Of a stretch of DNA of 64,000 bases, positions 10,131-63,107 are shown piece after piece. Each line of letters opens with the position of its first letter. Position 1 is the first letter of the stretch. A program made the position numbers and the translations under genes. The stretch is from a virus. Its lineage: Duplodnaviria; Heunggongvirae; Uroviricota; Caudoviricetes. The notes below the pieces were generated by a model. That model saw only the letters and a program-made list of their open reading frames with translations, ran no database searches and had not been told where the DNA came from. The stretch is taken from IMG/VR virus record IMGVR_UViG_2703718819_000006; one strand, written 5' to 3'.

Positions 10131-10151
10131 AATTACAGACGCCAGAACAAA

Positions 10152-10853: not shown

Positions 10854-10928
10854 TGTGGTGCTGGGTATGTGATTGGCTTACCCAGCACTATAAAGCTCTC
10901 TATGGGCTTTATTTTCAGTAGGGGAACG

Positions 10929-11896: not shown

Positions 11897-12454
11897 TTAC
11901 ACAATTTCAGAGGGTAATTTAAAAAATCCGTACTTATTACGTGCCTTAAAGAAGCATTGCATCATTAAGTTTGTGTCATATAAGGCACTATGTGCTTTGG
12001 CATGATCGTATATAAAGCCAAGAGAGAAGGCCAACTCTTCAAGGCGGGGACGTTTACCGTCTTCTGTGGCCCAAAATCCCGATAACATAGTATCTATAAC
12101 AGGAACTTCTGGCAGTCTTACTCCATACCCTGAAAACTCGTGTCGAATAAATGGTATATCAAATGCTTCGCCGTTATGAGCAACCCACACACTACATGCC
12201 CCCATATAAGCGCCAATTTCGCTGGCATGATTTGACAACAAAGGTTCAGCTGCGAGCTGTTCCAATGAAATGCCATGAACGGCTTGAGCTTTCGGATCTA
12301 TGTTTCTGCGAGGGTTAAAACGCATCTCCAGACTATCAATATGTCTCTGTGTCTCCAGTTCATAGCGGGTAATTGCGATTTCAATAATTTTATGACCAGC
12401 AAGGAAATCCAGTCCCGTAGACTCGATATCGATGCCTGCAACAATCGTTGTCAT
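11897..12454 (-). CDS. DnaQ-like (DEDDh) 3'-5' exonuclease
   Basis: GIDIESTGL exo I motif, HNGEAFDIPF exo II, C-terminal H/D motif; AAGGAG RBS. Confidence 0.75.
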   Translation of the reverse strand: MTTIVAGIDIESTGLDFLAGHKIIEIAITRYELETQRHIDSLEMRFNPRRNIDPKAQAVHGISLEQLAAEPLLSNHASEIGAYMGACSVWVAHNGEAFDIPFIRHEFSGYGVRLPEVPVIDTMLSGFWATEDGKRPRLEELAFSLGFIYDHAKAHSALYDTNLMMQCFFKARNKYGFFKLPSEIV

Positions 12455-12463
12455 CAGAACTCC

Positions 12464-12883
12464 TTACAACTTCTTAGCGCCCTTAAGTAGTGCGCTACGT
12501 ACAAATTGAGCCGCTTTTTTCAAAGTTTCTTCACTGGTTTCACAGACAATCGGATCTTTCCACTTACCTGACACAGTGTTGAGAATATTGATTTGGTTGC
12601 TATCCAGACAAACAGAGATATAAAGCACCGTGCCACCAGCCAGCATCAAATGCATAGGAAACAGAGGCTTTTTACTGCCTTCACTGAACTGAGACATGGC
12701 GATGTTAATGGCTTCACCCACTTGTGTACCAACAAGCCCCTGCGCAGTTTCGAATATGGCACGAATAGCCAGACGAGCCTCTCGATCGCTCATAAGCGAC
12801 CGGGAATGTTCGTCCGCTACACGAATCAAAGCCTCTGTTGTTTTCCGATCCAGTTCATCTTCAAGCAACATTTCACTAAACAT
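12464..12883 (-). CDS. hypothetical protein
   Basis: ORF track. Confidence 0.5.
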   Translation of the reverse strand: MFSEMLLEDELDRKTTEALIRVADEHSRSLMSDREARLAIRAIFETAQGLVGTQVGEAINIAMSQFSEGSKKPLFPMHLMLAGGTVLYISVCLDSNQINILNTVSGKWKDPIVCETSEETLKKAAQFVRSALLKGAKKL

Positions 12884-12944
12884 TTTTTATCCTTAACCCA
12901 TTTTGAGAGTTTTATTGTCGCAATGTCGAAGAGGCGAACAATTT

Positions 12945-13589
12945 CTAATGAACGGTCACTCGGCCACAGAACCGGTTTTCTATCTTTTCTACAGCGTTAT
13001 CTAGCATTCTCATCACTGATCTGGCTCTTGCTTCAACTGTGCGATACCGGTTGGAAACGACGAAGGTTTGCAGATCTCCCCTTTGCGGATGCAGGTGAAT
13101 TTTTGTCAGTTCCCCGCACATCAACGCATCAATACGAGCGACATACAGACGGTCTAATGATGCTCGTTGTGACCGCAAGTAATCTCGCTCTGAGAGAGCG
13201 ACCACCGGGCGTAGGCCAGCAATGGCGTTAAAGTTTGAAATAGCAGTTTTGTGGCAAAACTTTTCGATATCGAGGGCTAACTCAATACATCGATCTTCAT
13301 TGGTATGGCCGACCAAATCCAACGTGTAGGCCATAACATCAGCAGGTGTGCGATCGATAACAAAGCCTTCAGCACCACGCGTAAGTAGCTCTATATGCTT
13401 TGCTATTTCCATTTGAATCTGAAGCCGCTCATATAGAGGCATAGAATCACCTACTCGAACACCGAGGCGGCTCATCAAACTTCCGACACCAGCATCCACG
13501 TAAGGGATTCCGTAATGTTTGTCGATATATTTAGCCAGGGTTGTTTTCCCACTGCCCTGAGCACCAGTGATCCCAATCCGGTAATCCAT
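12945..13589 (-). CDS. P-loop NTPase, putative nucleotide or nucleoside kinase
   Basis: Walker A GITGAQGSGKTT at N-terminus; position among nucleotide-metabolism genes. Confidence 0.5.
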   Translation of the reverse strand: MDYRIGITGAQGSGKTTLAKYIDKHYGIPYVDAGVGSLMSRLGVRVGDSMPLYERLQIQMEIAKHIELLTRGAEGFVIDRTPADVMAYTLDLVGHTNEDRCIELALDIEKFCHKTAISNFNAIAGLRPVVALSERDYLRSQRASLDRLYVARIDALMCGELTKIHLHPQRGDLQTFVVSNRYRTVEARARSVMRMLDNAVEKIENRFCGRVTVH

Positions 13590-14065
13590 TACGACCTTCT
13601 GTATACGATCTGCGAAAAGCCAGGCTCTTCCTCGCTGGCTCGTTGGGTATAAGCTGTTTCAACAGGCACAAAGCCTAAATTACGCATCATGCTTGCCGGG
13701 AAGAATGCATCGGCGTTTGGCACATCAACGCCGATGTGGGAGAGCCAAATCTCTTCAACATGCGGCATGAATAGCGAGTAAATTTGTTCCCCGCCAATCA
13801 CCCACACAGGCTCTGGTAATCGCAACACATCATCCACACCAGCAGGGTAGAATCCATTTGGTACAAAGCCATGAGAGCGCGTCAAAACGAGGTTATGACG
13901 CTCTGGAAGAGGGCGTTTGAGACTTTCCATCGTTTTACGCCCCATAACGACAGTGGCGTTTTTGGTGAGTCTCTTAAATAGCTTCAGATCGGTAGAACAA
14001 CGCCAGGGCAGTTCGTTCGCTATGCCGATCTCATAGTTACGGCCAACAGCAGCTATCATCTTCAT
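13589..14065 (-). CDS. folA: dihydrofolate reductase
   Basis: MIAAVGRNYEIG..LPW..DLKLFK..T..VVMGRKT..S..RPLP.R.N.VLTR pattern of DHFR. Confidence 0.8.
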   Translation of the reverse strand: MKMIAAVGRNYEIGIANELPWRCSTDLKLFKRLTKNATVVMGRKTMESLKRPLPERHNLVLTRSHGFVPNGFYPAGVDDVLRLPEPVWVIGGEQIYSLFMPHVEEIWLSHIGVDVPNADAFFPASMMRNLGFVPVETAYTQRASEEEPGFSQIVYRRS

Positions 14066-14475
14066 TTGCTCACCTCATAGATGACCGGTCTATGATGAGA
14101 GTCAGCTAAAGCGGCACGGAGTCGAGGATCGTGCACCAGCGCAGCGATAAGCAGATCGCCTTTATGCTCCGCTAATGTGCGCTTAATATGCTTCTCATAA
14201 CTAGTGCTATTCGGTACGAGGTGAAGCCAGTCGTAATCAACACCAAAATCTTTCAGCCATCGTTTAGTGGGCGCTTCAAGAGTTTCAGAGCGGCTACTGA
14301 TAAGCACCACTTCAGCCCCTGAGCGAGCAAAACCACGCAACATACGGCTGGTGGGGAAAATGAGTTCATCACCGGCAATGAATTGGCCTGCATCCGAGTC
14401 AGATACAGATTTACGATGGCTGGTATTTGCCAGCACACCTTCAATTTCGCATAAGACATACATACCTCTTGCCAT
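14062..14475 (-). CDS. hypothetical protein
   Basis: ORF track 14062..14571; internal ATG at 14475 lies directly after the thyA stop. Confidence 0.4.
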   Translation of the reverse strand: MARGMYVLCEIEGVLANTSHRKSVSDSDAGQFIAGDELIFPTSRMLRGFARSGAEVVLISSRSETLEAPTKRWLKDFGVDYDWLHLVPNSTSYEKHIKRTLAEHKGDLLIAALVHDPRLRAALADSHHRPVIYEVSK

Positions 14476-14476
14476 A

Positions 14477-15580
14477 TCACACCGCCACTGGAACCTTGAT
14501 CCACGGTAGAGGGGCATAGCCAAGAATAAGAATCTCGTCCCATTTGAAATCATCCAGCTCAGACCATTCATTAGGGAATATAACGACCGGATCTGAATGC
14601 TCTGGAGCCTGTCGTTGCATTAGCTCACACACACCTTCCATGTGGTTGTTGTACAAATGCACGTCAAAGCCAAAATGCACAAATGCACCGGCCATGTGAC
14701 CCGTAATCTTCGCGAGAAAATGAGTGAGAATGCCATAGCCAGCAATATTGAATGGCATACCAACAAAAGTGTCTACGCTACGCTGTACGAGGCAGGAGTT
14801 GAGGATGCGTTTGGGGATTCCAAGTTCATCCAGTTCAGTTTCAGTAACACTGCCGTCCATCTCCAGATCGTATAGCATCTTGGTGTAGATAGACTCATAA
14901 CCGAGGCGACTGTGTTGAAGACCAATGTCAGTTGCCATCGTTAAACGGGTTTCAAAATCCAGTTCACGACTCCACAAAGAGAAGACAAAGTGGCAAGGTG
15001 GCAGTTTCATATCCTCAAGCTCGCCTACGTTCCATGCGTTAAGCATGATGCGACGATCGGTAGGGTTCGTGCGCAGTGTATCGACAATACGCTGTAGCTG
15101 ATCGATTTCACGGGACAGCACTACGCGATCTTCACTGATACCCAGGTATCCCTCGACTTTGTACCCGCGTTCACGGAAAGTAGCGATCTTGCTCAGATAT
15201 TCACTATGGCTCACGATGCGGGTATCTTCCCATCGACGCCACTGCTTACCGTAAACCGGCCCCAAATCGCCATTCTCATCGGCCCATGCATCCCAAATCT
15301 TAACGCCGTTATCCTTGAGAAATTGGATGTTGCCCGTGCCTTTCAGATACCACTCAAGTTCGACAAGCAGTGGCTTAAGATTTACCGCCTTTCCAGAAAT
15401 AAGCGGCACAGTCCCACCAGTAAGCATGTAGTAAGAGGGAACGTAGCAGGTGCTTAAAGTACCAGTGCCTGTGCGATCATCAGCCTGCACGCCGCTTTTA
15501 AGCACCGTCTCAATAACTTTTGCATACGATGCGTTTGTTACCTGACCGTTCGTATGCTCACGATTCAAAAGGAGTGACAC
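14477..15580 (-). CDS. thyA: thymidylate synthase (ThyA type) with ~50 aa internal insertion
   Basis: DRTGTGT, PPCH active-site motif, GMPFNIAGY; ORF track start 15607 is GTG, a GTG at 15580 has better GAGG RBS (start uncertain). Confidence 0.8.
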   Translation of the reverse strand: MSLLLNREHTNGQVTNASYAKVIETVLKSGVQADDRTGTGTLSTCYVPSYYMLTGGTVPLISGKAVNLKPLLVELEWYLKGTGNIQFLKDNGVKIWDAWADENGDLGPVYGKQWRRWEDTRIVSHSEYLSKIATFRERGYKVEGYLGISEDRVVLSREIDQLQRIVDTLRTNPTDRRIMLNAWNVGELEDMKLPPCHFVFSLWSRELDFETRLTMATDIGLQHSRLGYESIYTKMLYDLEMDGSVTETELDELGIPKRILNSCLVQRSVDTFVGMPFNIAGYGILTHFLAKITGHMAGAFVHFGFDVHLYNNHMEGVCELMQRQAPEHSDPVVIFPNEWSELDDFKWDEILILGYAPLPWIKVPVAV

Positions 15581-15663
15581 AAAAACCTCACAAAGATAAG
15601 TAACCACTTATTCATTAAGTGAGTTTACATTTATTGAGGGAACAAGGCCAGATAGATAAAAAA

Positions 15664-15682
15664 ATGGTGGCCATAGGCCACC
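15664..15682 (-). terminator. rho-independent terminator
   Basis: tggtggcc ata ggccacca hairpin followed by U7 on minus strand. Confidence 0.65.
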
Positions 15683-15751
15683 AAAAACGAATAGTTGTTT
15701 CAGAAATTTAACGCGCCAGCGCAATATACACAGATAGATAACTACCTACAA

Positions 15752-16621
15752 TTATTTTTTGATCATTCCGTACATTGCTGAGGCTTTAGCTTGCTCAACA
15801 AAGGAGGATAAATCGACATCACTATAGGTTGGAGACTTCAGAATCTTTCCATCGGAAATTCGAAAACCGATCATCTTATCGGTGCCATCAGCATGGCGAA
15901 ATCCCAGGTCAGAAGAGTCGTATTTGCAGTTGGCCACAGCATGGCGACGCTCTTCGGCATCTGCAGGCCATAATTTTGTCATGTTGGACCGATGAATTTC
16001 GCCAACCAGCTCGACGACATTGATACCGAGAAAATCAGCCAGTCGATAAGTCATCATGCACGCCACATAGATTTTGTTCATTACACGGCGCAGTTCCTGA
16101 ATCAGCTCAGAATCCTTAACAGTCTTCTTCTCAAGTTTATCTGCCAGCTCTTCGAGCATACATGACGCCTCACGAGCTTCCTGAAATGGCATTGCCATAT
16201 CATCGAAAACAGTGTTACCAGGCACAAAAATTGTCTGCATAAAGCGATCAATGCTCTGTTCCTGCGTGTAATAAGTCATGCCGGTAGAAATACCACCTTT
16301 GATGGCGACCATCGTACCAACACCAACGTATAAAAAGTCGGCCATTGCATCCAGCAGTTGCTCAATATCCCCATTCATTGCGGCTGGAATACCTTCCACT
16401 ACAGCTTCTTCATGAATCAGGCTTGCACGGAGACGAAGCAGCTCTGGTGTCGGCATAACGCGTCTCGGATGCTGGAAGAGTTCATGAAACTGATCGACCA
16501 TCTTGTAAATACTTTCAGTGGCTACACCATGGCCTTCATGCAATTCATATGGTTCTGGCTTAAATCCAATGAGTCGATCGGTGGCAAGTTTCAGGTGGTC
16601 AGTCAGTTTGGTAAAGTTCAT
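15752..16621 (-). CDS. putative all-alpha NTP pyrophosphohydrolase (MazG or dimeric-dUTPase-like), uncertain
   Basis: Acidic EExxE-type helical motifs; location between thyA and nrdB; weak assignment. Confidence 0.4.
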   Translation of the reverse strand: MNFTKLTDHLKLATDRLIGFKPEPYELHEGHGVATESIYKMVDQFHELFQHPRRVMPTPELLRLRASLIHEEAVVEGIPAAMNGDIEQLLDAMADFLYVGVGTMVAIKGGISTGMTYYTQEQSIDRFMQTIFVPGNTVFDDMAMPFQEAREASCMLEELADKLEKKTVKDSELIQELRRVMNKIYVACMMTYRLADFLGINVVELVGEIHRSNMTKLWPADAEERRHAVANCKYDSSDLGFRHADGTDKMIGFRISDGKILKSPTYSDVDLSSFVEQAKASAMYGMIKK

Positions 16622-16698
16622 GCTAGTTTTGTTCCTTCTTAATTCTTGTGATCCATTGTGGCCCAGCGTTGCCAGGCCACATAATGCTTTGTATCGGT

Positions 16699-17841
16699 TT
16701 ACAGGTCTGCAAACTGGCTTAGAGAAGCCTTATCCACGGTAGAATCGATCTGACCTACCAGATATGTGCTTTGCTCTGCCTCTTGTGGTGCAATTTGCAG
16801 TGTGTCGGTTAACAACCACTTGTTCATCCAGACCAGCGGATCAGTGGTAACTTCTGGAAATAAAGCCTTCAGGCCAAGACGATTCATAGCCAGATTGGTG
16901 CGGTATTTTACATAGGTTTTGAGAATATCCGCGTTTAAACCAATCATCGAACCGTCTTTGAAGAGATAGTCGGCCCAGTTCATTTCTTGTTCGGCGACTG
17001 ATTTCATGGTGTCGTAAATGACGTTTTCTTCATCAGCAGCAATCTCTTTCCACAATAAACCTTCGCGACCGGTACGCATGAAGCGGATCATGCGTTCAGT
17101 TCCTTCGCAATGCAGAGCTTCATCACGGGCAATAAAGCGCATAATTTTGGTGTTACCCTCAAGCAACTTCCGTTCACCAAAGGCAAACGTACATGCAAAA
17201 CTTACGTAGAAACGGATCGCCTCAAGCGCATTAATGGACACCAACGTGCGGAAAAGCTGACGATGCAAAGGGTATGGCTCCCAGCCATATTCATTTACGT
17301 ACAGACGCTCAAATTCCTTCTCACCTAACGACTGGCGCTCGCAGGTCATCCCATAAAGCCTGTCATATTCAGCAGAGATACTGATCGCTCGGTTGATGAT
17401 TTCTTCATCCGTAACAATACCGTCAAAAACAATACTCGGATCGTCCACCATGCCACGAATAATGTGGGTGTAGCTGCGGCTATGGATAGTCTCAGAGAAA
17501 GACCACGTTTCAACCCACGTTTCCAGTTCAGGAATAGAGATAAGCGGCAGCAGCGTTGCATTTGGACTACGTCCCTGAACTGAATCGAGTAACGTTTGAT
17601 AACGGAGATTGCTCAGAAAAATGTGACGTTCGTGGTCCCGCAGCTTCGTGTTGAAGTCGATACGATCGCTCGAAATATCAACTTCTTCCGGCCGCCAGAA
17701 GAAAGACAATTGACGTTCAATCAACTTTTCAAAATCACGGTATTTTTGCTGATCGTAACGTGCCACGTTGACAGATTGTCCGAGGAACATAGGCTCTTTG
17801 GTTGCATCATTAGCACCCAAACGGAACGTTGAATATGACAT
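16699..17841 (-). CDS. nrdB: ribonucleotide reductase class Ia beta subunit
   Basis: Near-collinear with enterobacterial NrdB ([42 protein letters not shown]). Confidence 0.95.
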
Positions 17842-17947
17842 GTGTTTTTCCTTTTTCTTTTTTGGTGCGTTTAAACAAGTTGTTATCTTATGTGTTTAAA
17901 CAAGGCTTACAAATCAAAGAGAAGGTGGGGATATCCCCCACCATATG

Positions 17948-20263
17948 TCAGATTTTGCAGGCTCCGTCGCACTCATCTTCTGGCTCGACGGCTACAGCTT
18001 GCGTCAGTGGATTCTGCGGTTCGTCGTCATCACGCTTTCCTGCCCCATCTCTGGTGTTGTGGTAGTAAAGCGTTTTAACTCCCATCTTGTAGGCGAGAAG
18101 CAAATCTGACAGTAGCGTCATCATTGGGACTTTATCGCCTTCAAAGCGAGAAGGGTCATAGTTGGTATTGGCTGAAATAGCCTGGTCAAAGAACTTCTGG
18201 ATGATCGCCACCTTTGTCAGATAGCCGCGGTTGTCCGGCATATCCCACAGGTATTCATACTGTTCCTTCAGTTTTTCAAACTCAGGCACGACCATCTTGA
18301 CGATGCCGTCCTTAGAAGATTTCACTGACACCGGGCCACGAGGCGGTTCGATGCCGTTGGTGGAATTAGTGATCTGGCTGGAAGTCTCGCATGGCATTTG
18401 TGCCGTCAGTGTGGAGTTGCGAAGGCCGTATTTTGCAATACGTTCACGCAGTTCTTCCCACGGCATCTTTAACTCAAAGTTGGTTTCGCCACTTTCGTCT
18501 AATGAAGAACGGTAATGGTCGATCGGCAACTGACCAATTGCGTATTTGGTCTGCTCAAACCAGTCACACTCACCTTTTGCTTCAGCAAGTCGGCAGCTGG
18601 CATCAAGAAGGTAATACTGGATAGCTTCGAACGTTTCATGCACCAGTTTATTGCCAGCGGTATCAGAATAACGAACGCCATTCTTTGCCAGGTAATAAGC
18701 AAAGTTGGTTACACCAATTCCCAAGCTACGACGAGCTTTGGCAGGCACTTCGGCTGCCTCCATCGGATAGTCTTGATAATCCAGTAACGAATCCAGTGCA
18801 GCAACGGCATAGAACGCCACCTCTTTAAGAGACTCCAGTGAACGGATGGCTCCGAGGTTAAAAGCGGATAAAGTGCATAGCGCGATCTCACCGTTCGGGT
18901 CGTCGGTAAATGCCAGTGGACGGGTGGGTAGGGTGATCTCCATACACAGGTTTGACTGGCGAACAGGTGCAAGAGCAGGAATGAAAGCGCCATGCTCATT
19001 AATATGATCGACGTTCGCAATATAAATTCGGCCCGTGGACGCTCGTTCCTGCATCAGAGATGAGAACAGCTCAATGGCAGGTACTGACTTCTTGCGAATT
19101 GAATCATCGGCTTCGTATTTATGGTACAGCTTTTCAAACAGCTCCTGGTCTGTGAAGAAGGCTTCGTACATATCAGGCACATCATGCGGGCTGAACAGAG
19201 TGATGTTCTCGCTTCTGACGAGTCGACGGTACATTAGACGGTTACTCATGACGCCGTAATCAAGATGGCGAACGCGGTTTTCATCAATACCACGGTTATT
19301 TTTCACCACCAGCAGACTTTCAACTTCAAGATGCCAGATCGGGTAAAACGCTGTTGCTGCGCCACCACGAACACCACCTTGCGAACAAGATTTAACAGCC
19401 GTCTGGAAATGCTTCAGGAATGGAATAACTCCAGTATGGGTGGCTTCACCATTGCGGATCTCGCTGCCCAGCGCACGGATACGGCCAAAACCAATACCAA
19501 TTCCAGCACGACGTGAAACGTAGTCGATAATTGCGGCTGAAGCTGCACTAATCCCTTTCAGACTATCGCCAGACTCAATCAGCACACAACTGGAGAACTG
19601 ACGGGTTGGAGTACGGACGCCGGCCATGATTGGTGTGGGCAGAGACAGTTTGAACGTACTTGTAACGTCATAGAAACCTTTGACCATCTCCATACGTGTT
19701 TTGCCAGCGCAGTCGTCTTCCCAATTCTGGAACAGACACATGCCTACCAGCATATAGATATGTTGCGGTCCCTCATGAATCTCACCAGTAACACGGTTTT
19801 GAACGAGGTATTTGCTTTGCAACTGCACCGTAGCTGCATAGCCAAAAAGATCGTCACGTTTCGGCTTAATGTAATTGCCGAGTTCTTCGATCTCTTCAAA
19901 CGAATAATGTGTCAGCAAATCCTTGTCATAAACGCCCTTGTTAACGTTCTTGACAATGTGTTGGTAGAAGTTCGGATAGTCGTAACGACCGAAGGCATCT
20001 TTGCGGATTTTAAAAATGTTCAGGCGGGCAGCCACCTGTGAGTAATTTGGTGCTTCTGGTGAGATCAAATCAGCGGCAGATTTAACCAAAGCCTCATGCA
20101 ACTGGCTGGTGGTCATCCCATCAAAAATGCTGGCCGCAGCTCCCATTGCTACAGCGGATGCGCTTACACCACGAATGCCTTCTACGCCATACATTACGAC
20201 GCGGTTGTATTTTTCTTCGGATAACGGCTCTGTTTGGCCGTTACGTTTTACGATGCTTATCAT
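17948..20263 (-). CDS. nrdA: ribonucleotide reductase class Ia alpha subunit
   Basis: Near-collinear with enterobacterial NrdA (YLVQNRVTGEI, SCVLIE, CSQGGVRGGAAT, NLCMEI, C-terminal CxxC tail). Confidence 0.95.
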   Translation of the reverse strand: MISIVKRNGQTEPLSEEKYNRVVMYGVEGIRGVSASAVAMGAAASIFDGMTTSQLHEALVKSAADLISPEAPNYSQVAARLNIFKIRKDAFGRYDYPNFYQHIVKNVNKGVYDKDLLTHYSFEEIEELGNYIKPKRDDLFGYAATVQLQSKYLVQNRVTGEIHEGPQHIYMLVGMCLFQNWEDDCAGKTRMEMVKGFYDVTSTFKLSLPTPIMAGVRTPTRQFSSCVLIESGDSLKGISAASAAIIDYVSRRAGIGIGFGRIRALGSEIRNGEATHTGVIPFLKHFQTAVKSCSQGGVRGGAATAFYPIWHLEVESLLVVKNNRGIDENRVRHLDYGVMSNRLMYRRLVRSENITLFSPHDVPDMYEAFFTDQELFEKLYHKYEADDSIRKKSVPAIELFSSLMQERASTGRIYIANVDHINEHGAFIPALAPVRQSNLCMEITLPTRPLAFTDDPNGEIALCTLSAFNLGAIRSLESLKEVAFYAVAALDSLLDYQDYPMEAAEVPAKARRSLGIGVTNFAYYLAKNGVRYSDTAGNKLVHETFEAIQYYLLDASCRLAEAKGECDWFEQTKYAIGQLPIDHYRSSLDESGETNFELKMPWEELRERIAKYGLRNSTLTAQMPCETSSQITNSTNGIEPPRGPVSVKSSKDGIVKMVVPEFEKLKEQYEYLWDMPDNRGYLTKVAIIQKFFDQAISANTNYDPSRFEGDKVPMMTLLSDLLLAYKMGVKTLYYHNTRDGAGKRDDDEPQNPLTQAVAVEPEDECDGACKI

Positions 20264-20336
20264 GTATCACCAAATAAAGAGGGCCACTAAATATAGTGGC
20301 TCATGTTAATAGATAAGCACTTACCTATCAATGAAA

Positions 20337-21659: not shown

Positions 21660-23565
21660 AGCTGCGCCCCTCTTTAACTTCCAGCGTAATAGTTTCCCGG
21701 AACCATGACTTCATCTCTTTATGGGAGATAATCAGCACAGTACCTCGCTCGCGAGCTTTGGACTCCAAAATACCCATGAGGCGTTCAAGACCGGCTGTAT
21801 CGAGTGCATCGTCAATTTCGTCGCCGATAAACAAATCGATGTTTTTACTCGCCCGGTTACTAACCAGATCCTGCAATGCCAAAGAACACGCAATGCGAAC
21901 CTTCCGCTTCTCACCACCAGAGAGGGTCTGGAACGACTTACTTGAACCTTTCTTCTGCACACTAATGTTGAATTTGTCGCGATACTCACCTTTTTTAGTG
22001 ACATCCATCGTCGACCACTCAGCAGTAATATTCCCGTCAGACAACGTATTGAGATACTCGGCAGTGCGTGTATTCAGGAAAGGCGTAACAGACGTCAAAA
22101 TATGAGAACGCACCCCGGCAGGAGAGTAGACCTGACGAGCTTTTTCCAATAGCAACGTTTGTTCCTGAATAGCCTTCAACTCATCTTTTAAGGACTTGAA
22201 GGTAGACTTACTGGATACCAGGTTATCTTCGTGTCTGGCGATAAGAGCAATAAACGGATTAATCTCTTTTGATATACGATCGACCTCAGTACGAGCACGA
22301 GTCACAAGAGACTCAATAGCAACAACCTCCTTCTCACGATGACGCAAAGATGAGAGTTGTTTCGTAAGCTCTTCAATCCGGGCAATGATAGCCGTTACAT
22401 CAGGTGTCGTTTTAACAAGGGCAGACTCAATGCTTAACGCCTTCTCAAGATTCGTTTTGTGTTTAGCCATTGCCTCTGCAAGTGTCTTCGCCTGACCAAT
22501 TTCCTGACGTGCTTGTTCAATGAAATTCTCCTTCACCGTTGATAGATCTTCTTCGCAGTAGGCTTTGCCACAAGTAGGGCATGGTGATCCCACTTTAGTA
22601 CCAACCTCTTCTGCTTTGGTCTTAAAATTACGCGCGCGGTTCATTGCATCAGCCTGACTATTTTCTGTAGCGTTGATGCTTGCCCGAATATCAGTTATCG
22701 CACCACGAACTTTGAGCAACTTGGCGTCATGTTCTTCTTTTGAGGCTAACTTTTTGCGCTCACTTTCGATTGCCTTCTCGGTATCACGGATCTGTTCGGG
22801 AAGAGTGCGGATCTCAAGTTCAACTTCCGTTAACTCAACTTCGGCACTGGCCAGCCCAGCCAGGGCATCGTCATAACGTTTAGAACGCTCTTGCTCCCAT
22901 GATTCAGAGGAGGCTTTCGCTGACTCAATTTCTGACTGTGTTGCCTCAATGGTCGAGATTGTCGACTCCAATTTGGTTTTAACCACATCCATACGTGCGG
23001 CAGCTGCATTAGCTCGCTCACGAGCAATAGCGTAGGCGCGTGTCAGTCTGTCAACGCCAGCGGCTTCTTCTACGATGGTTTTGAGGTTTTTGTCGGACAT
23101 TCCAGGTAAATCTGGCATAGCTTCTTGGCTCGCATAGATGGAAGCCATGAAAACCTCTTTAGATGCACCGATCAGACGCTCGACGAACTCTTGCGTCAGC
23201 GCATCTTTGCCTTTCGTCATATCGCCGTCTTCACCACGAACGATAAGCCGATTTTTGAACTCTTTGTGTTTACGGTGACGAATGATCGCATATCTCTTGC
23301 CTTCATCCTCGATGGTTACTGCAACACGACAGTTCTTTTCATGGTCGGTAGACAACACATCGTCACCCTTCACACCATGAGCTGTTTCGCCATAAAGACA
23401 CCACATCAGGCTATTCATTAGCGTTGACTTTCCAGAGCCATTACTTGATGCGGAACTATCATCACTATTAACACCCTGAATGAGTACTAAACCACGCTGA
23501 TCTAACTCGACCTCCGCGCTGGCGATAGCCATAAAATTCTCAACCTGGAGCTTTAAAAACTTCAT
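21649..23565 (-). CDS. sbcC: SbcC/Rad50-like recombination ATPase
   Basis: N-terminal Walker A GSGKST, long coiled-coil, CPTCG zinc hook, C-terminal LSGGE signature and D-loop. Confidence 0.8.
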   Translation of the reverse strand: MKFLKLQVENFMAIASAEVELDQRGLVLIQGVNSDDSSASSNGSGKSTLMNSLMWCLYGETAHGVKGDDVLSTDHEKNCRVAVTIEDEGKRYAIIRHRKHKEFKNRLIVRGEDGDMTKGKDALTQEFVERLIGASKEVFMASIYASQEAMPDLPGMSDKNLKTIVEEAAGVDRLTRAYAIARERANAAAARMDVVKTKLESTISTIEATQSEIESAKASSESWEQERSKRYDDALAGLASAEVELTEVELEIRTLPEQIRDTEKAIESERKKLASKEEHDAKLLKVRGAITDIRASINATENSQADAMNRARNFKTKAEEVGTKVGSPCPTCGKAYCEEDLSTVKENFIEQARQEIGQAKTLAEAMAKHKTNLEKALSIESALVKTTPDVTAIIARIEELTKQLSSLRHREKEVVAIESLVTRARTEVDRISKEINPFIALIARHEDNLVSSKSTFKSLKDELKAIQEQTLLLEKARQVYSPAGVRSHILTSVTPFLNTRTAEYLNTLSDGNITAEWSTMDVTKKGEYRDKFNISVQKKGSSKSFQTLSGGEKRKVRIACSLALQDLVSNRASKNIDLFIGDEIDDALDTAGLERLMGILESKARERGTVLIISHKEMKSWFRETITLEVKEGRSYVV

Positions 23566-23794
23566 ATAACACCTTTGATACCGTGTGTTAGCTTTTGACC
23601 TTCTTTCAATCTGAACTCCGTATGCGCCGGGAAGGATCTGCGCCTCAATACGCCTTTTCTGGTTAACCTTCCAAGATAAAACGCTACGGGATTTCCTTGT
23701 GGCGGGTAGGGCTTGTGAAACATCACCGTCTGGCCTCGTTCAAGTCTTTTCATCGTGATGGCAAAGTCTCGAAAGCTCCCATAACGACTTTGCC

Positions 23795-24880
23795 TCACAC
23801 AGCCTCCGAACTCTCCGCTTCGGTGAGGATTTCCTGACACAAAATATCCAACTTGCTTAGATCAAATCCGCCGTCAGTATCGTGGACAATCTTGCAATAA
23901 GCAGATACCGACTCTCCCAGGCTATCGATTTTGCTGGTTTCCGTTGTGCTTGCTGTCCCTTCCATCATTGATGACTTACGGATGAAGTTGCACACGACAC
24001 CTTTTGCACCCATTGTTTTGAGGATGTTCTGGTACTTAATGCCTTCTTCATCGTTCTCAATTACGGCGCGGAAACGCACGTAGTTGCCGCGAATTTGGTC
24101 ATCGGCAACATAATCTTCCAGGTTAATGAATTTAGGCGCACTGGTTTCGTAGTGACTGAAACTGCCGTCCGGGTTTACGATCATGTAACCAGCCAGAGAT
24201 CCAACATCTCCCCAATTTTGATGGGTCAGCGCACCGACACTGATAACTCCAGGAATGACCTCTTTGTGGTTGTGGTAATGCCCACTAAGCACGAGACGAA
24301 AGCCGATATCCTTTAACTCCTGCGCATCGATACCGACGTCAGGCATTGTTGGAATGGCTTTGTTAATGGATGTATGGATAACAACGTCATGATTATCACC
24401 TTCTACGCTCTTACGTAATGCTTTCAGATCGCTGATAAGCTCCGCATGATTGTTACGCCAGCTAATCAGGTGGACAGTCACATCACCAATTTTTATTGAG
24501 TGTGGGCGTTTGCCACATACGATTACCACGCCGATAGAACTCAGCGATGCTGCTGCGTTGGCGCTATATACTGAATCGTTGGTTTCAAGATCGTGATTAC
24601 CGGCCAGCATTACTACTGTCAGATCAAGCTCGTTGATAATCCACTTGTACGTTTCAGTTACGTAATGCAAAACAGAAGGGGACACAGTTCCTCGGACGTG
24701 AAATGTATCACCGGCAATCAGCATGTACTTACAACCGGCCTTCTTCATGGCGATGGCTGCTTCTTTCGTTGCTTCCAACTGTATTTCAAGTCTGGAGTTA
24801 AGCCCCTCAGCGTTCGTCGTGGAGAACGCATCCCATTTGTGGTAGTGGCAGTCAGAAATGACGCCGTATGGCAAAGTCAT
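23795..24880 (-). CDS. sbcD: SbcD/Mre11-like nuclease (calcineurin-like phosphoesterase)
   Basis: Metallophosphatase motifs DxH, GDxxH, GNHD, GHxH. Confidence 0.8.
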   Translation of the reverse strand: MTLPYGVISDCHYHKWDAFSTTNAEGLNSRLEIQLEATKEAAIAMKKAGCKYMLIAGDTFHVRGTVSPSVLHYVTETYKWIINELDLTVVMLAGNHDLETNDSVYSANAAASLSSIGVVIVCGKRPHSIKIGDVTVHLISWRNNHAELISDLKALRKSVEGDNHDVVIHTSINKAIPTMPDVGIDAQELKDIGFRLVLSGHYHNHKEVIPGVISVGALTHQNWGDVGSLAGYMIVNPDGSFSHYETSAPKFINLEDYVADDQIRGNYVRFRAVIENDEEGIKYQNILKTMGAKGVVCNFIRKSSMMEGTASTTETSKIDSLGESVSAYCKIVHDTDGGFDLSKLDILCQEILTEAESSEAV

Positions 24881-25134
24881 GTGTTTTTCCTTTGTGGTTA
24901 TTTTGATACAAATTTTAAGAGCAATGAGAAGGTAAACAACTATGCATAACGGTATGTTAGGAATGAAACGAGCGCATTAATATACAAAATTTATAAGTAA
25001 GTATATACCTATTTGTTGTGACGCAACTTTGCTTGTCTGTATGACTAAAAATAAGACAGGATCACTGTAGAACGCTATGAGAGCTATTTTGAGGGGGCGT
25101 AGATTCTATCTACGCCAATATACGATCTGGAGGG

Positions 25135-28790: not shown

Positions 28791-28829
28791 GATAGGTAGA
28801 TACTAACTTATATAAATTTTACTGTAAAC

Positions 28830-32799: not shown

Positions 32800-32866
32800 G
32801 TGTTTTCCTATGTGGTTGTTATGTGAAAATGATAAGTAAGTACTTATATATTTTCAAGAAATAAAA

Positions 32867-37533: not shown

Positions 37534-37650
37534 GTGTTTCTCCTTGTTGTGATTTGGCCGATGGCGCTATGCGCGTTGGGCTTTCGTTCATTCGTGGCTC
37601 TTTCGAGCTGTTAAATGATAGATCAGTGCTTACTTATTATCTATCAAAAA

Positions 37651-41726: not shown

Positions 41727-41904
41727 GTGTTTTTACCTTTCTGGTTTTTTTGATTTTGTCATTGGGGAAGCCTACGAACTTCCCATGCATCGAAATCGCA
41801 ACTTCTTTTGCTGATTGGTGACAATCGGGCTTGTCTGGACACACCAGACAAGCCTTACCAGTTTCAGAAGCAGCGATAAGAGAGCCGAAACATCCTTTAC
41901 GCAC
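41701..41904 (-). CDS. small Cys-rich ORF filling CobS-Pol spacer (GTG start, no clear RBS)
   Basis: ORF track only. Confidence 0.2.
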   Translation of the reverse strand: MRKGCFGSLIAASETGKACLVCPDKPDCHQSAKEVAISMHGKFVGFPNDKIKKTRKVKTHEGTDGSN

Positions 41905-41906
41905 GA

Positions 41907-43142
41907 TTAACCAAATATTTTTTGAACAACTTCACGAGCCGCTTGTGCAGAAGCTGAAGGGAGTTTGTTAATGAAAGAACGCTCAATACCTGTCACAAAG
42001 TCGCCTCGCATCATTCCAATCTTGGCCGACAACAAAAGTTCACGAGGGCCAATTGGCTGACTAATAAGGTGTTCTTCGTATCCATCGCGAACGATACCGG
42101 CAAACTTAACCATCTTTTCAGCGTATTCATCCACGATGCCTGCATTTATCAACATGTTGATCTCTGCGTCTTTGCTCATGTATTTCACATTCGAAACGAT
42201 GCCAAAACGCGAAAAGTTCGCGGCGTTCTGGATGTTTGTACCCTGGTACAAGCCGGTTTCATCACCAGATCCGTTCGTGTTGCCAGTGCCAATGAAAGCA
42301 AACCGTTCATGCGGAGTAATGCGACGCCATTCTGGAGTCGCCTCTTTGATGACCAACGCTTCACCTTCCAGCACTGGCTGATACACGCCAAGAATCTGTG
42401 GAAACGCAAAGTCGTATTCATCCGCGAGGTAAACCCAGCCATGCTTCATTGCGAGCGCAAGCAAGCCAGGCTCGAAATACGTAGAGCCATCACGCGCCAG
42501 AATTTGCCCCGTAACATGTGCCTCTTCCATTGATGCTGTATGTTGGGCACGGATCAACGGACGATTGAGCAAAGCACATAGCTGTGTAGGCAATGACGAT
42601 TTGCCTGTTCCTGCATGACCCCACAAATAGCCAGGTATGCCAAGTTCAAGCATCATGAAAATGTCTTTGATCAGTTCGAAGTCGCCATATACGTATCCCT
42701 TCTTCACTTCTGGAACGAACTCTGGAAACGGCGTATTGACGTTGACGCTAACCATGAGCGGCGTCCCACGTTTTGTTCCGAGTTCTTTCACCGTTACATT
42801 TAGCAGTTCGTGAGCTGCGACCAGATCTGTCTTGTACTCAACTGTGCCTGTGTAGCCTGGGCTACTGGTCACGCCAGATGATTTGGCCATTTCGCTTTTT
42901 TGCTCGGCACGTTTAGCTTGAATTGCATCAAGTGCCTTTTTCGATAGCGTTGGCTCATCTGGAAACTGTGTTGTGTACATTTTCAGTACGGTGTCAGGAT
43001 CGGCATCTTTTACTGACTCAGGAATGCCCTCGCAATTACCATTGGCTACATGGGACTTAAAATAGTGAAATGATTTTCCGCACCACTTGCAAACAAGGTA
43101 ATCAGAAGGATTTTTTTCATTTTGCAGTGCAGTAGTAGTCAT
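41907..43142 (-). CDS. CobS-like AAA+ ATPase (MoxR family)
   Basis: Walker A GHAGTGKSSL, AAA+ core; paired with vWA protein. Confidence 0.7.
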   Translation of the reverse strand: MTTTALQNEKNPSDYLVCKWCGKSFHYFKSHVANGNCEGIPESVKDADPDTVLKMYTTQFPDEPTLSKKALDAIQAKRAEQKSEMAKSSGVTSSPGYTGTVEYKTDLVAAHELLNVTVKELGTKRGTPLMVSVNVNTPFPEFVPEVKKGYVYGDFELIKDIFMMLELGIPGYLWGHAGTGKSSLPTQLCALLNRPLIRAQHTASMEEAHVTGQILARDGSTYFEPGLLALAMKHGWVYLADEYDFAFPQILGVYQPVLEGEALVIKEATPEWRRITPHERFAFIGTGNTNGSGDETGLYQGTNIQNAANFSRFGIVSNVKYMSKDAEINMLINAGIVDEYAEKMVKFAGIVRDGYEEHLISQPIGPRELLLSAKIGMMRGDFVTGIERSFINKLPSASAQAAREVVQKIFG

Positions 43143-43237
43143 GCGTTTTTCCTTTGTTTTCTAATGAGCGTTCAACTTCTTATATAAATATATCATTAAC
43201 TATCGTAAGTGGTTACTTATCATTAAGGCTGTTTTAT

Positions 43238-45346: not shown

Positions 45347-45444
45347 GGCTAATCCTTTGTTATGAAAACAAATTATTTACTAGTGTGTTTAATGTAGCAC
45401 TGCGCGAACAGGGAACTAAGCCATTCGCGCAGGGAGAAGAGGGG

Positions 45445-45657
45445 TTAACAGATTCTGACGGCTAAAGACCCGGAGCCGATATTGAGAAGCGTGAAGCGTT
45501 TGTTGTTAAGTTCGAATATAAAGCCAGTTGTGTCATTCACACCAATCTGAATCTGCTCATTCGGTAGATCGGTGAGGATGTCAGCTACACACTCATCAGC
45601 TAATTTCTGTACGTGTCCGATCTCAAGAGCGATTAGGCTGGAAATAGTGGTGTTCAT
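45445..45657 (-). CDS. hypothetical protein
   Basis: ORF track. Confidence 0.4.
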   Translation of the reverse strand: MNTTISSLIALEIGHVQKLADECVADILTDLPNEQIQIGVNDTTGFIFELNNKRFTLLNIGSGSLAVRIC

Positions 45658-45908
45658 TCAATCAATCCATTCTAACTTATACTATGGTAAGGAATACTAC
45701 TAAAATTTATATCAATACTGAATACATTCATATCATATGCAAGTTAATTTTCTTACCTGTTTTGGGCTAATTTTTCTCCGTGCAATGGCCTTTAACCGGT
45801 CTTTTAAGTGCCTATCGAAAAAAATGATAATAGCTTTACAACCCTAACCTTTGATGTAATATCGGTAAGCACTTACCAGAGAGAATTGAACGCGCAAAGG
45901 TTGTAACC

Positions 45909-46295
45909 ATGTCTGATAACAAGATTGAATTTATAGAAAGTCGCTATGCTGCTTTTATCGCAGGGCTGATTGAATCCTCACCTATGAGTCAGGCCCAAAT
46001 AGCCAGACTTATTGGTTATAAAAATGCCAACAACCTTTCTTTAATTAAAAGTGGCAAAATTCCTTTGCCTATCGATAAGGTTCGTCCGTTGGCGCTGGCG
46101 CTGGGTATTGAGCCAAGTCGTCTTATGATGATGGTGCTGGAAGAACGCCAACCTGAACTCGCAGCATTTTTATACAAAGAAGGCACCGCTCCTCTTAACG
46201 AGGACGAAAAACAGGTTCTTGCTGCATATAACGAGCGATTCGGTAAAGAGAAAGGCGCATCACAAAAGGTTGTTGAGGCTATAAAGTCTCTATGA
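45909..46295 (+). CDS. helix-turn-helix (XRE-like) transcriptional regulator
   Basis: HTH segment SQAQIARLIGYKNANNLSLIKSG; convergent with recombinase gene. Confidence 0.6.
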   Translation: MSDNKIEFIESRYAAFIAGLIESSPMSQAQIARLIGYKNANNLSLIKSGKIPLPIDKVRPLALALGIEPSRLMMMVLEERQPELAAFLYKEGTAPLNEDEKQVLAAYNERFGKEKGASQKVVEAIKSL

Positions 46296-47393
46296 AAAAT
46301 TTACACGAATAAGCTCTGTTGATAGACGATCTCCCTTGAATTTGTGGTCAATTTCGTCTAAATCCGGTTGCTCTACGATTGATGCGATGTACGTCGAGAA
46401 ACTTTCTAAGGCGTCTCGCATCTCGTCCATATAATCGTGCCGGTCGTAGACTCGATCTATCCCCTCAAGACTGTGGTTCATGATTTTGCGTGATACCTCC
46501 TGGCTTATGCCTAATGCTGGGAAGTAACTACGCGCAGTACGGCGCAAGTCTCGGGGTGTAAATGGCTCAAGCTCCATCAGTTCTGGTCGTTCCAGAATAC
46601 GACGTAATGCCTGGGCTATTGCCACTTTAGACATAGGAAGGTCTTTCCCGATTTTTTTATTCGAAGGCACGAGCCACTGGCTGCCTTTACCGTATTCGAA
46701 CAACTCTTCAATACATGTGCGCATTAATGTGCTTAAAGGCAGCGAATGCTCACGGGCAGATTTGTTCCTCTTGCCTTGATTCCAAACCCCATGCTTAAGA
46801 TTGAACTCACTTTTTTTAGCCCGCAGTACTTCGTCAGGTCGTCTTGCGGATACAAGACACAGCCTGGCCGCCCATTTTGTACCAGCGCACACATTGAAGT
46901 AGTCCCATATATTCCAGAACACCCATACCTCTGCGTCGGTCAGCTTCCGCTCGCGAGGTGTTGGCTTTGCGCCACCGGCAACTTTGTTAAGTGACATATC
47001 GTTTAACGGTGACACGTCTATCATCCCCTGGAAGGCGCACCAGCTAAGGAACTGCTTCATCAGAGAGAAAACGCGGCGGCCCATAACAATTTTGCCATCC
47101 AGTATTAGTGGGTTGACCAGTTGGTTCACCATGAACCTATTAATGTCACTTACTTTTACATCGGCAATGTGCGGCAAAACATGTATCAAAATACAATGAA
47201 CAGCGATCTCTGGCCGACGTCTTGTTATCAGCAAAGATAAGCGAGTGAATAACATGAATGCGTCCGAGAATCTCATGTCATTGCTGACCTGGGAGATCAT
47301 AACGGCCTGCATTTGAGATGCTCTTTCGAGATACTCAATCGCCTCTTTTGAGGTGTTCTCCGCAGCGCGTGCTCTGTCAAAGCTATTTTTCAT
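46290..47393 (-). CDS. tyrosine site-specific recombinase / integrase
   Basis: C-terminal R..HxxR..Y catalytic pattern (TPRDLRRTARSYF, HSLEGIDRVYDRHDY). Confidence 0.75.
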   Translation of the reverse strand: MKNSFDRARAAENTSKEAIEYLERASQMQAVMISQVSNDMRFSDAFMLFTRLSLLITRRRPEIAVHCILIHVLPHIADVKVSDINRFMVNQLVNPLILDGKIVMGRRVFSLMKQFLSWCAFQGMIDVSPLNDMSLNKVAGGAKPTPRERKLTDAEVWVFWNIWDYFNVCAGTKWAARLCLVSARRPDEVLRAKKSEFNLKHGVWNQGKRNKSAREHSLPLSTLMRTCIEELFEYGKGSQWLVPSNKKIGKDLPMSKVAIAQALRRILERPELMELEPFTPRDLRRTARSYFPALGISQEVSRKIMNHSLEGIDRVYDRHDYMDEMRDALESFSTYIASIVEQPDLDEIDHKFKGDRLSTELIRVNFS

Positions 47394-47491
47394 ATGACAA
47401 TCACCGAGTTACGCCGATGCACTGTATAAGTAAACAGTATATTAGGCATAGATTCTTATAGGATCAAGAGTCAAAGTAACTCATTTTTAGT

Positions 47492-50588: not shown

Positions 50589-51364
50589 AATTCAGCACTG
50601 CCAGTATTTATTACTCAACAGTGCCAATCGCGGCGGTGTTAGTTTCTGCCAGGAAACGCACCGCTACTTGCACTTTCCGTTAGTGCCAGACGTTTTCGAC
50701 TTCGCTCAATAGAAGGCAAAATCTTTAAGTAGATGATGTTTCTGAGGACAGCACCTACTTTGTAATTCATACAATGTGATGTATGGAATCATTTGTTGTG
50801 AAAACAGGCACCAATGGCAACAGTGGTTAAACCTACACAACAATCCTGTCTTCACAACGTTGAGGCCACTACTCCGATTGAATGTTTGCCCAACATGTTA
50901 CATATCAACGCTCGCCGGTATCTCTGTGAATAGAACCTTAGAATTGATAAAAATGTAATGGCCTCAACGTTGTGTGCTGGCTAACCATACCAGCCGGGCT
51001 ACGTCGCCGCTTTTTAACCCAGTATAAACGACATAATTAAACAAAATGACGTAACAGGATGGGCGGTCAGTGGCTAAGAATCCGGGAGTCATATGGAGTT
51101 GAAAATATACCAACCGCCCATTCTGTTACTTCATCGGAGGGAACATGAATGTTCCCTCCTGCGTTCTGCAATCACACTCGCTCAGTGTGTCCCATTTCGG
51201 TAACGAGGCTGGAAACTGACCTCGCTGGTGTTTGGCTTATTAGGCTACTGCCAGATAGACTTCTTCGTTTGCACTTGTATTTAAGTTCAAACAGTCGCGT
51301 CTCAACGAAAACAAAGTCATCTTATACACAAAAGATAAGTAAGTAAATACTTATCAATATGTTT

Positions 51365-53977: not shown

Positions 53978-54031
53978 AAATAATCTTGTACTTACCTATC
54001 GTTATTTGCGTAAAAACGACGCGCGGAGAGA

Positions 54032-54808: not shown

Positions 54809-54886
54809 ACCAACTCCTAGCTAACAGATGAAAGTATTCTCACAGAAAGATAAGTAATCATCTACTTATTTTAAAGGTGATTGTTA

Positions 54887-58271: not shown

Positions 58272-58387
58272 GTGGCTCACCTGGTAGGTAGTTACTTACT
58301 TATCGCAATGAGCGGATGATAGCGACTGGTGGCAGTTTTTGGAAGTGGAAACGGAAGGGAGTTGTTCTGGTGGTGTCTTTTAAAAGA

Positions 58388-58443
58388 CCTGCTTCCGTAT
58401 ATATTTAATAAGTTACTTATTATTTATATATATACAGAAGCAG
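58388..58443 (-). terminator. long AT-rich-loop hairpin, second copy of element at 10072..10130
   Basis: Arms cctgcttccgtatatat / atatatacagaagcagg. Confidence 0.4.
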
Positions 58444-58555
58444 GCATAACTTGTCGTCTTAGACGCCCAGAAGCTCTACACTTTGAGCCTGTTAAATTGA
58501 TTAAAAACTTATGTGTAAAATAGAACGCATTAGTCAGTAGCAAAGAGATGCAATA

Positions 58556-62970: not shown

Positions 62971-63107
62971 GTTTCCTCCATGAAAAGTCAAATCGGGATG
63001 GCGGATTTATATCACATTTTACCCCTCAATTGATAGGTATGTACCTGCCTATTTATATTGCAAAACTAATGAGGGCTTGGTTCTAAACTAATCCTCGTTG
63101 AAGTTAT

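Follow-up and report, generated by a model that had tools for sequence, protein, structure and literature searches.

In a 64,000-nt stretch of DNA from virus record IMGVR_UViG_2703718819_000006 (the window, whose positions we use unless another genome is named), a 22-bp palindrome recurs in the gaps between genes, and these dyads probably form a dispersed operator family of a prophage repressor. They would act by occluding promoters and, within operons, as insulators or roadblocks. The repressor as binder, repression on binding, and a block to elongation at the intra-operon sites are what we infer from the evidence below. We found no published description of the dyad motif, or of lysis-lysogeny control in this family, in the literature searched, which included searches with the motif strings.

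The window is part of an SSU5-like phage-plasmid, with 97-98% identity to Escherichia phage Cyrano (pLF82), CMS-2020a and PhiR41_1, and ~80% identity to Salmonella phage SSU5. Its orientation is opposite to that of the Cyrano record, and the majority of its genes lie on the minus strand. Coding sequence makes up 85.6% of the window. Present are the genes for lysis, par and toxin-antitoxin functions, those for replication, recombination and nucleotide metabolism, repA, an integrase/repressor module and a cluster of tRNAs. SSU5-like elements comprise hundreds of plasmids in E. coli, Klebsiella, Enterobacter and Acinetobacter; the DnaE of the family is found in 985 records, and its members include pHCM2 (S. 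Typhi) and pMT1 (Y. pestis).

Aligned in the sense orientation, the copies form a continuous palindrome, (G/A)ATA(A/G)GTAAGT-ACTTAC(C/T)TAT(C/T) (the hyphen marks the centre), with A-rich and T-rich flanks (aaaat...atttt). The centre, AGTACT, is less conserved and is itself palindromic. An earlier, sequence-only reading of this DNA had described the same arms separated by a variable spacer of 2-6 bp. The arms are borne out, but the copies are better described by a continuous palindrome with a looser centre than by a variable spacer. Around the true spacer of 6 between 8-bp outer arms there are secondary peaks at 2 and 10, and these apparent spacers of 2, 6 and 10 arise from the 4-bp self-similarity of TAAGTAAGT.

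We counted mismatches against the 22-mer consensus GATARGTAAGT-ACTTACYTATC. With at most five mismatches there are 15 sites in the window, against 0.05 expected from 100 Markov shuffles, and with at most six there are 16, against 0.52. The half-site GATARGTAAGT alone, allowing one mismatch, has 10 matches (1.64 expected), a number reached in 0 of 100 shuffles. All 15 strong copies are intergenic or touch merely a stop codon; when up to seven mismatches are allowed, 25 of the 29 copies are intergenic (binomial P = 1e-17). On either strand, two of the three reading frames through the motif are interrupted by stop codons, which partly explains why it avoids genes but does not explain its enrichment. 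The proposal of a motif family at 15 or more sites therefore stands: 14 of the 16 coordinates listed for it hold a true copy, although some were slightly displaced, by a few bases. The copies at the remaining two, 43203-43222 and 45866-45882, are weak (seven mismatches), the latter retaining the inner core GGTAAGCACTTACC alone, while a good copy at 9716-9737 was absent from the list.

The same pattern is found in related genomes, which we scanned with a matrix built from 13 window sites. Cyrano has 27 sites (25 intergenic), SSU5 has 22-26 (20 of 22 intergenic), and the Klebsiella plasmids CP052220.1 and NZ_CP097685.1, the second more divergent, have 22 and 26. There are 33 sites in the Acinetobacter baumannii plasmid NZ_CP143349.1 (30 intergenic) and 38 in the Sinorhizobium plasmid pLM21S1 (37 intergenic). 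Among the enteric genomes the sites are orthologous, and the dyad is the conserved block in intergenic alignments while its flanks diverge. The complete genomes also reveal sites in the structural module, at the terL-portal junction, past the capsid gene, among the tail genes and ahead of the holin gene. In Cyrano there are no dyads in the accessory region at 84.6-105.1 kb, nor at the promoters of repA, parA and the toxin-antitoxin genes. The sequence-only reading had named two observations that would tell against it, a lack of intergenic enrichment and a lack of positional conservation; the first is contradicted by the counts in the window and its relatives, and the second by the orthologous sites.

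The more distant relatives carry variants of the motif. In the A. baumannii plasmid, whose DnaE is ~39% identical, the palindrome is distinct but related (aaaaTCAGTCAGT-ACTGACTGAtttt, also written TCAGTCAGT-ACTGACTGA), and it too lies at the terL-portal junction and on both sides of the capsid gene. In Sinorhizobium pLM21S1 (59% GC, DnaE ~37% identical) the consensus is TAAGTAAgyrcTTACTTA, and several, indeed many, of the dyads are preceded by CGCTATAA, a -10-like element. The half-sites across all lineages have the common skeleton xATxxGTxAGT. Since the motif is shared by the enteric, Acinetobacter and Sinorhizobium relatives, we take the dyad system to be an old, conserved feature of the SSU5 phage-plasmid superfamily.

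We then compared the pairing of the two arms with that expected by chance. Over 67 distinct sites, pairing in the proposed 9-bp stem is 80.3%, identical to the mean of 500 column shuffles (80.3%), with 269 of the 500 shuffles at least equal. The arm covariation score for these sites is no higher than that of the shuffled control, and at the R/Y position G-C, A-T, G-T and A-C pairs occur as often as they would if the two arms assorted independently. Conservation is equal in the left and right halves (624 vs 608 of 737 consensus matches), and the motif shows no polarity relative to transcription. The absence of arm covariation, together with the symmetric halves and the palindromic centre, indicates that the dyad is recognised in double-stranded DNA, by a protein with two-fold symmetry, rather than as RNA. 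On the result of this test we rejected an RNA hairpin or terminator, and the idea that the dyads are processing sites is likewise not supported.

Where promoter-like sequences can be recognised next to a dyad, their register relative to it differs from site to site. The dyad at 20308-20329 (three mismatches), between a RuvC-like gene and nrdA, occupies the spacer of a TTGATA-N17-TAACAT promoter and contributes its GATA to the -35, in an alignment of four lineages. At 28791-28812 (four mismatches) the dyad abuts the ATG of a 59-aa gene, and a conserved TTTACA-N17-TAGTAT promoter has its -10, TAGTAT, inside the dyad (three-lineage alignment). The copy at 3573-3594 (sense GATAGGTAAATACTTACCTAAT, three mismatches) overlaps the stop of a DUF4942 gene 41 nt upstream of an Ead/Ea22-like start and is followed by a conserved extended -10, TGTAAGAAT; dyad and -10 block are both kept in SSU5 and Klebsiella. 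Finally, the dyad at 10756-10777 (three mismatches) lies 10 nt upstream of an adenine methyltransferase ATG, and a sigma-70-like site, TTGCCA-17-AAAAAT (10803-10775, minus strand), terminates inside it, so this dyad would cover the transcription start. Such a variable register over the spacer, -10, start or upstream side of core promoter elements fits operators, and is unlike activator sites or promoter elements. Of the functions first suggested for the motif, that of an operator thus agrees best with the data: the sites are symmetric, lack covariation, overlap promoters in varied registers, and include a partial copy at the promoter of a conserved repressor gene.

That gene (45909-46295, plus strand) encodes a 128-aa XRE/Cro-CI-type helix-turn-helix protein, a putative prophage repressor homologous to CYRAN_45. 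Its Pfam matches, HTH_19 (18.9 bits) and HTH_37, are both below the gathering score, and its PDB profile match is to the XRE-type domain 2kpj (E = 0.028). An AlphaFold2 model built from the single sequence has a predicted local distance difference test (pLDDT) score of 73, and a Foldseek search of the PDB with it gave XRE helix-turn-helix proteins for every one of the 50 best matches (probabilities up to 0.99, weak E-values). These profile and structure matches assign the repressor a Cro/CI-type helix-turn-helix fold. The protein shares 48% identity with an Acinetobacter protein (E = 4e-26) and has a Sinorhizobium homologue (hhalign 98.8%). In Enterobacteriaceae, Acinetobacter and Sinorhizobium alike, it is always found beside the operon of a small ORF, CobT, CobS and DnaE. 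The repressor occurs in 863 plasmid records, with a genus distribution matching that of the DnaE-bearing plasmids. Besides the repressor, the only proteins common to Cyrano and the Acinetobacter element that might reasonably be expected to read DNA sequence are two ParB_N proteins and TerS.

Dyads or partial dyads are present at the repressor promoter in every lineage. In the window this is a partial dyad at 45860-45881 (TATCGGTAAGCACTTACCAGAG, seven mismatches), which keeps the inner 14-bp core 27 nt ahead of the repressor ATG, just downstream of a promoter-like site, TTTACA-N16-TAATAT. In the enteric genomes the core lies at about -49: its position relative to the ATG stays between -48 and -51 in E. 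coli, Salmonella, Yersinia and Klebsiella, although its flanks diverge. The partial dyad at 45860-45881 is a candidate weak autoregulatory operator. The divergent Klebsiella plasmid NZ_CP097685.1 has two half-dyads at this promoter, the Acinetobacter plasmid has four sites clustered at 23526-24368, and the Sinorhizobium plasmid has sites at 1686 and 2295. The motif and the repressor also vary together: the recognition-helix region reads KN(A/P/Q)N.. in all lineages with TAAGTAA half-sites and KRPN.. only in Acinetobacter, in which two A's of the half-site are changed to C (TAAGTAA to TCAGTCA).

Divergent from the repressor is a 70-aa gene (45448-45657, minus strand), the first of the CobT-CobS-DnaE operon and syntenic in E. 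coli, Acinetobacter and Sinorhizobium. Its product has no Pfam match, and its position suggests a possible Cro-like counterpart of the repressor.

Published RNA-seq data from a Cyrano lysogen (PMC9928086, S1 Table) give an expression value of 95.75 for the repressor against a median of 9.8, while the genes downstream of dyads are near background. In the same data, expression drops across dyad orthologues in each case where the gene upstream is expressed, at gene pairs 30/31, 34/35 and 64/65 (PMC9928086). At the Cyrano orthologues of the dyads at 24992, 53979 and 58283, the drops are from 31.5 to 7.5, from 43.7 to 8.8 and from 54.6 to 6.2, respectively.

SSU5, which was isolated as a lytic phage, has a ~3-kb deletion that removes the integrase and XRE repressor module and leaves the sites in place (SSU5 41776-42761 vs window 45400-47400). 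Loss of the module may explain its lytic behaviour. The deletion appears recent, since close plasmid relatives that are 99% identical keep the module. Outside the window, Cyrano also encodes a stand-alone S24 (LexA/UmuD-like) peptidase of 129 aa (CYRAN_98, Cyrano 19312-19701), expressed in the lysogen at 148 against the median of 9.8. As the 128-aa repressor has no cleavage domain, we propose that CYRAN_98 could link the SOS response to induction.

On the operator reading, a dimer of the small XRE-type repressor (45909-46295) would bind the 22-bp palindrome at ~25 intergenic sites per genome, 15 of them in the window. At sites overlapping sigma-70 promoters (-35/spacer, -10 or start), bound repressor would block initiation; in short intra-operon gaps without room for a promoter, the bound protein would instead probably be a roadblock or insulator against read-through from plasmid-maintenance genes. 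Together, the sites would silence replication, nucleotide-metabolism, structural and lysis genes during plasmid life, and the partial dyad downstream of the repressor's own promoter would provide negative autoregulation.

Several points weigh against this reading. The assignment of the binder leans on synteny, on covariation at about one residue and on having eliminated the other candidates. In the main Klebsiella group the helix is somewhat different, KNPNILSLIKKGR, with an unchanged motif, so the correlation between helix and motif is loose. The enteric repressor promoter holds merely a partial dyad, with seven mismatches. Half-site centres ~13 bp apart are unusual for lambda-type repressors, although similar spacing occurs in HipB operators. 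As for expression, the steps are inseparable from ordinary terminators, which could contribute to them; CYRAN_34, the gene that directly follows one of the dyads, has a moderate expression value in the lysogen (43.7); and the relationship between dyad strength and induction in macrophages is a non-significant trend (rho -0.32, P = 0.16).

A broader version of the same idea, which we put forward only tentatively, is that silencing by an XRE dimer is ancient and extends to the whole superfamily. The dimer would sit on 25-40 palindromes at nearly every operon junction, each both an operator and an orientation-independent roadblock or insulator, making the system an independently arisen Gram-negative counterpart of the mycobacteriophage stoperators discussed below. 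It would have been re-tuned in Acinetobacter (TAAGTAA to TCAGTCA, with Asn-to-Arg at the start of the recognition helix), and would set immunity groups, in this case among clinically widespread plasmids carrying resistance genes. If the narrower reading is true, dyad and XRE repressor are the regulatory code of the family and predict which elements are homo-immune, and repressor loss explains the lytic behaviour of SSU5. The pair would also be a defined operator and repressor for engineering or curing these plasmids. It would add a second instance, with an independent evolutionary origin, of repressor sites spread genome-wide and placed within operons, and its symmetric sites would be useful for testing RNA polymerase arrest from either direction.

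The best copy in the window, with two mismatches, is the one that the sequence-only reading gave as its site: 51334-51355 (GATAAGTATTTACTTACTTATC), 9 nt past a gene stop. Downstream of it come TATAAGAT, a conserved non-coding block and then the tRNA cluster. The block (51250-51333) is near-invariant in E. coli, SSU5 and Klebsiella and has no Rfam match; a small RNA and a leader of the tRNA operon are possible identities. A conserved hairpin followed by a T-run is also found in four lineages at ~20281-20302, between the nrdA promoter-dyad and the nrdA ribosome-binding site. As the predicted nrdA transcription start falls within the left arm of this hairpin, it could stop read-through from upstream and yet let transcripts from the nrdA promoter pass.

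Other copies lie close to the start of the following gene. The dyad at 58283-58304 (three mismatches) is 11 nt upstream of the start of a 246-aa gene, directly ahead of its ribosome-binding site. That at 15595-15616 (five mismatches; orthologues at SSU5 72510 and Klebsiella 36727) is 14 nt upstream of the ThyX start, and that at 53979-54000 (five mismatches, one strong half) is 1 nt upstream of a 160-aa gene. Two copies overlap the stop of the preceding gene: 8543-8564 (four mismatches; orthologues at SSU5 79903 and Klebsiella 28893) at an RNase H gene, with the next gene 128 nt downstream, and 9716-9737 (five mismatches, position weight matrix score 13.2) at a small gene, with one good half-site and the other degraded. 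The copy at 54849-54870 (five mismatches) lies 16 nt past the stop of the primase gene, with TGTGAGAAT on its downstream side, and 40 nt separate it from the following gene. At 37617-37638 (four mismatches; orthologues at SSU5 52174 and Klebsiella 54009) the dyad is 12 nt past a UvsY-like stop and 83 nt upstream of a gp32-like single-stranded DNA-binding protein gene.

Further dyads separate an ASCH-domain gene from sbcD (24992-25013, four mismatches), a RecA-like gene from a small membrane-protein gene (32831-32852, three mismatches; orthologue at SSU5 55694), and the tail-fibre gene from the holin gene (63032-63053, four mismatches, 61 nt upstream of the holin start; orthologues at SSU5 27473 and Klebsiella 81193). 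Two overlapping weak copies, with seven mismatches each, lie between the CobT-like and CobS-like genes (43183-43221); their Cyrano counterpart at 45279 scores 13.8.

The dyads might instead be bound in the lytic cycle by another phage protein, either a Cro-like protein, an unrecognised activator or a ParB_N protein in the manner of RK2 KorB or N15 SopB, which would coordinate lytic transcription or DNA organisation rather than silence genes in the lysogen. The dispersed palindromic sites of KorB and SopB are a known precedent for this. Two ParB_N proteins are conserved in all lineages, and a dyad is located immediately upstream of the first ParB_N gene in Cyrano (105106), Acinetobacter (75797), Sinorhizobium (73541) and NZ_CP097685.1 (79080). 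In addition, transcripts in macrophage samples rise just past some dyads (gene pairs 11/12, 55/56 and 59/60; PMC9928086). SSU5 retains its sites though it is without the repressor, but its deletion is apparently recent. The ParB-like proteins of Cyrano, CYRAN_119 and CYRAN_120, have a ParB_N domain only, with no detectable helix-turn-helix, and in the lysogen they are expressed at 4.99 (the detection floor) and 9.5 (PMC9928086); these two observations weaken ParB as a binder. An activator is ill-suited to the variable register of the sites, which includes positions within the spacer and over the -10, and a Cro-like protein would normally share the repressor's operators, complementing the operator reading more than competing with it. 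Another binder is the strongest alternative to the operator reading; overall, we consider it unlikely.

It is quite improbable that the dyad is a phage-specific promoter element, recognised by a sigma factor of the phage or by an RNA polymerase that depends on an activator, for which the P1 Lpa late promoters or the Mu C/Mor sites would be precedents. About half of the window sites do have a -10-like hexamer 6-12 nt downstream. However, such hexamers occur as often on the antisense flank (3-8 sites) as on the sense flank (6-8), and the motif has no polarity; we rejected a fixed-spacing promoter on this flank analysis. Dyads lie anywhere between 0 and >100 nt from the ATG, and for copies 0-15 nt from an ATG or in intra-operon gaps of 26-50 nt, a downstream start is impossible. 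The conserved promoters described above also differ in register relative to the dyad. The promoter family proposed in the sequence-only reading is therefore not supported, having no fixed -10 spacing, equal hexamers on both flanks and several copies 0-15 nt from the ATG. The stretch at 1-20000 is poor in consensus sigma-70 promoter-like sites (14 found vs 31.2 expected, with the sense strand holding 4 of the 14), a scarcity that would suit a promoter of another kind. So would the sigma factor gene of Sinorhizobium pLM21S1 (6449-7090), between the CobS-like gene and dnaE, but the annotations of the enteric genomes include no recognisable sigma factor or RNA polymerase.

We think it very improbable that the dyads are selfish or neutral repeats, similar to repetitive extragenic palindromic (REP) sequences or miniature inverted-repeat transposable elements (MITEs), gathering in non-coding DNA. 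Short palindromic repeats have spread in some genomes, and the stop codons in this motif make it a poor fit inside genes. Yet the dyads occupy the same junctions (terL-portal, both sides of the capsid gene, upstream of ParB_N) despite protein identities of 37-59%, and are conserved while their flanks diverge. None are found in the 20-kb accessory region with its many intergenic gaps, and no RAYT-type transposase is annotated.

Hardly any credence is left for RNA hairpins, whether as processing or stability elements or as weak bidirectional intrinsic terminators: many copies lie 0-40 nt past a stop codon, the flanks (aaaat...atttt) are symmetric and a perfect consensus could form a 9-bp stem, but covariation is absent, A-C mismatches are common at the R/Y position, the loop would be a self-complementary GTAC, sequence rather than pairing is conserved in ~25 copies per genome and across genera, several dyads are directly followed by canonical GC-rich hairpins, no dyad at 1-20000 is called terminator-like, and an Rfam search of the window matched only tRNAs and none of the dyads.

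Two further candidates were rejected. A host regulon motif does not fit an exact 20-mer that occurs only 13 times, singly and in unrelated taxa, among 185,579 species genomes; the Fur box, the OxyR motif and the NarL heptamers resemble the dyad only partially. Tyrosine-recombinase core sites (8-6-8, with an integrase gene beside the repressor) would, at ~25 symmetric copies, scramble a genome whose gene order is in fact conserved.

The window also contains other repeated elements. A second palindrome family, AAACAAnTTGTTT (sense AGAAAACAAnTTGTTTwA), is found at 6924, 7653, 57507 and 60439, with copies ~20-35 nt upstream of the minus-strand starts of a 189-aa gene, a TciA-like gene, the DnaB helicase gene and parA. 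CP052220.1 has 10 copies and NZ_CP097685.1 has 13, and another regulator may bind at this palindrome. A long inverted repeat, CCTGCTTCCGTATAT...ATATACAGAAGCAGG, is present at ~58388-58444 and ~10074-10128, with an AT-rich loop containing a degenerate dyad; SSU5 also has two copies, near 33472 and 78318. This repeat may be a strong terminator that works in both directions, or a site for another protein. Many gene starts (for example upstream of 32799 and 3531) share a ribosome-binding context, AGGAAAACACATG, which occurs 14 times in NZ_CP097685.1. Lastly, the first part of the window (1-2400) carries lambdoid ea22/ead/eaa-like genes with 93-98% identity to genes of HK140, N7, Emek and Stx phages, which by their sequence are a mosaic insertion of accessory genes into the phage-plasmid.

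Several known systems resemble these dyads in part. P1 is likewise a plasmid prophage, and its C1 operators, scattered over a ~100-kb genome, control many lytic operons. However, P1 operators are asymmetric 17-mers (ATTGCTCTAATAAATTT) at promoters, whereas the dyad is palindromic and different in sequence. C1 is a 283-aa protein unrelated to XRE repressors, while the repressor here matches only HTH_19 and HTH_37 in Pfam. The late operons of P1 are controlled indirectly through Lpa, without operators of their own. RK2 KorB (12 palindromic OB sites) and N15 SopB act, as the dyads would, as global repressors at dispersed palindromes with variable distances to promoters; both have a helix-turn-helix and work with ParA in the plasmid state, while the ParB_N proteins here have no detectable helix-turn-helix.

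The stoperators of L5 and other cluster A phages (~24-30 sites bound by gp71) share with the dyads their tens of copies genome-wide, mostly in short intergenic gaps and including sites within late operons. At stoperators, the L5 prophage repressor blocks both initiation and elongation (PMC9283540; PMC5712189). Both families have a lytic derivative without the repressor: SSU5, which keeps its sites, and for L5 the phage D29, a deletion derivative of a temperate parent (PMC5712189). With 15 copies in the window and 27 in Cyrano, 25 of the latter intergenic, the dyads fit the stoperator pattern of more than 20 dispersed, mainly intergenic copies per genome. The L5 sites are nevertheless asymmetric 13-mers oriented with transcription, whereas the dyads are symmetric 22-bp palindromes without polarity, and the L5 binder is a monomer with a helix-turn-helix and a Stoperator domain, in contrast to the 128-aa XRE-type candidate here. 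A repeat in the enterobacterial siphoviruses T1 and Stevie is also 22 bp long, with 16-20 mostly intergenic copies, but it lacks symmetry, points in the direction of transcription, belongs to strictly lytic phages and is unrelated in sequence (VWATAGCAYKWWTTGYTAAAAV) (PMC4319613). The features of the dyads, a two-fold symmetric operator with independent half-sites and a partial copy at the candidate repressor's own promoter, are those of XRE-type systems. We conclude that the dyad system is functionally like the P1 C1 operators and the L5 stoperators and is a member of neither family, because its sites are symmetric, where theirs are asymmetric and oriented, and its candidate repressor comes from a protein family to which theirs are not related.

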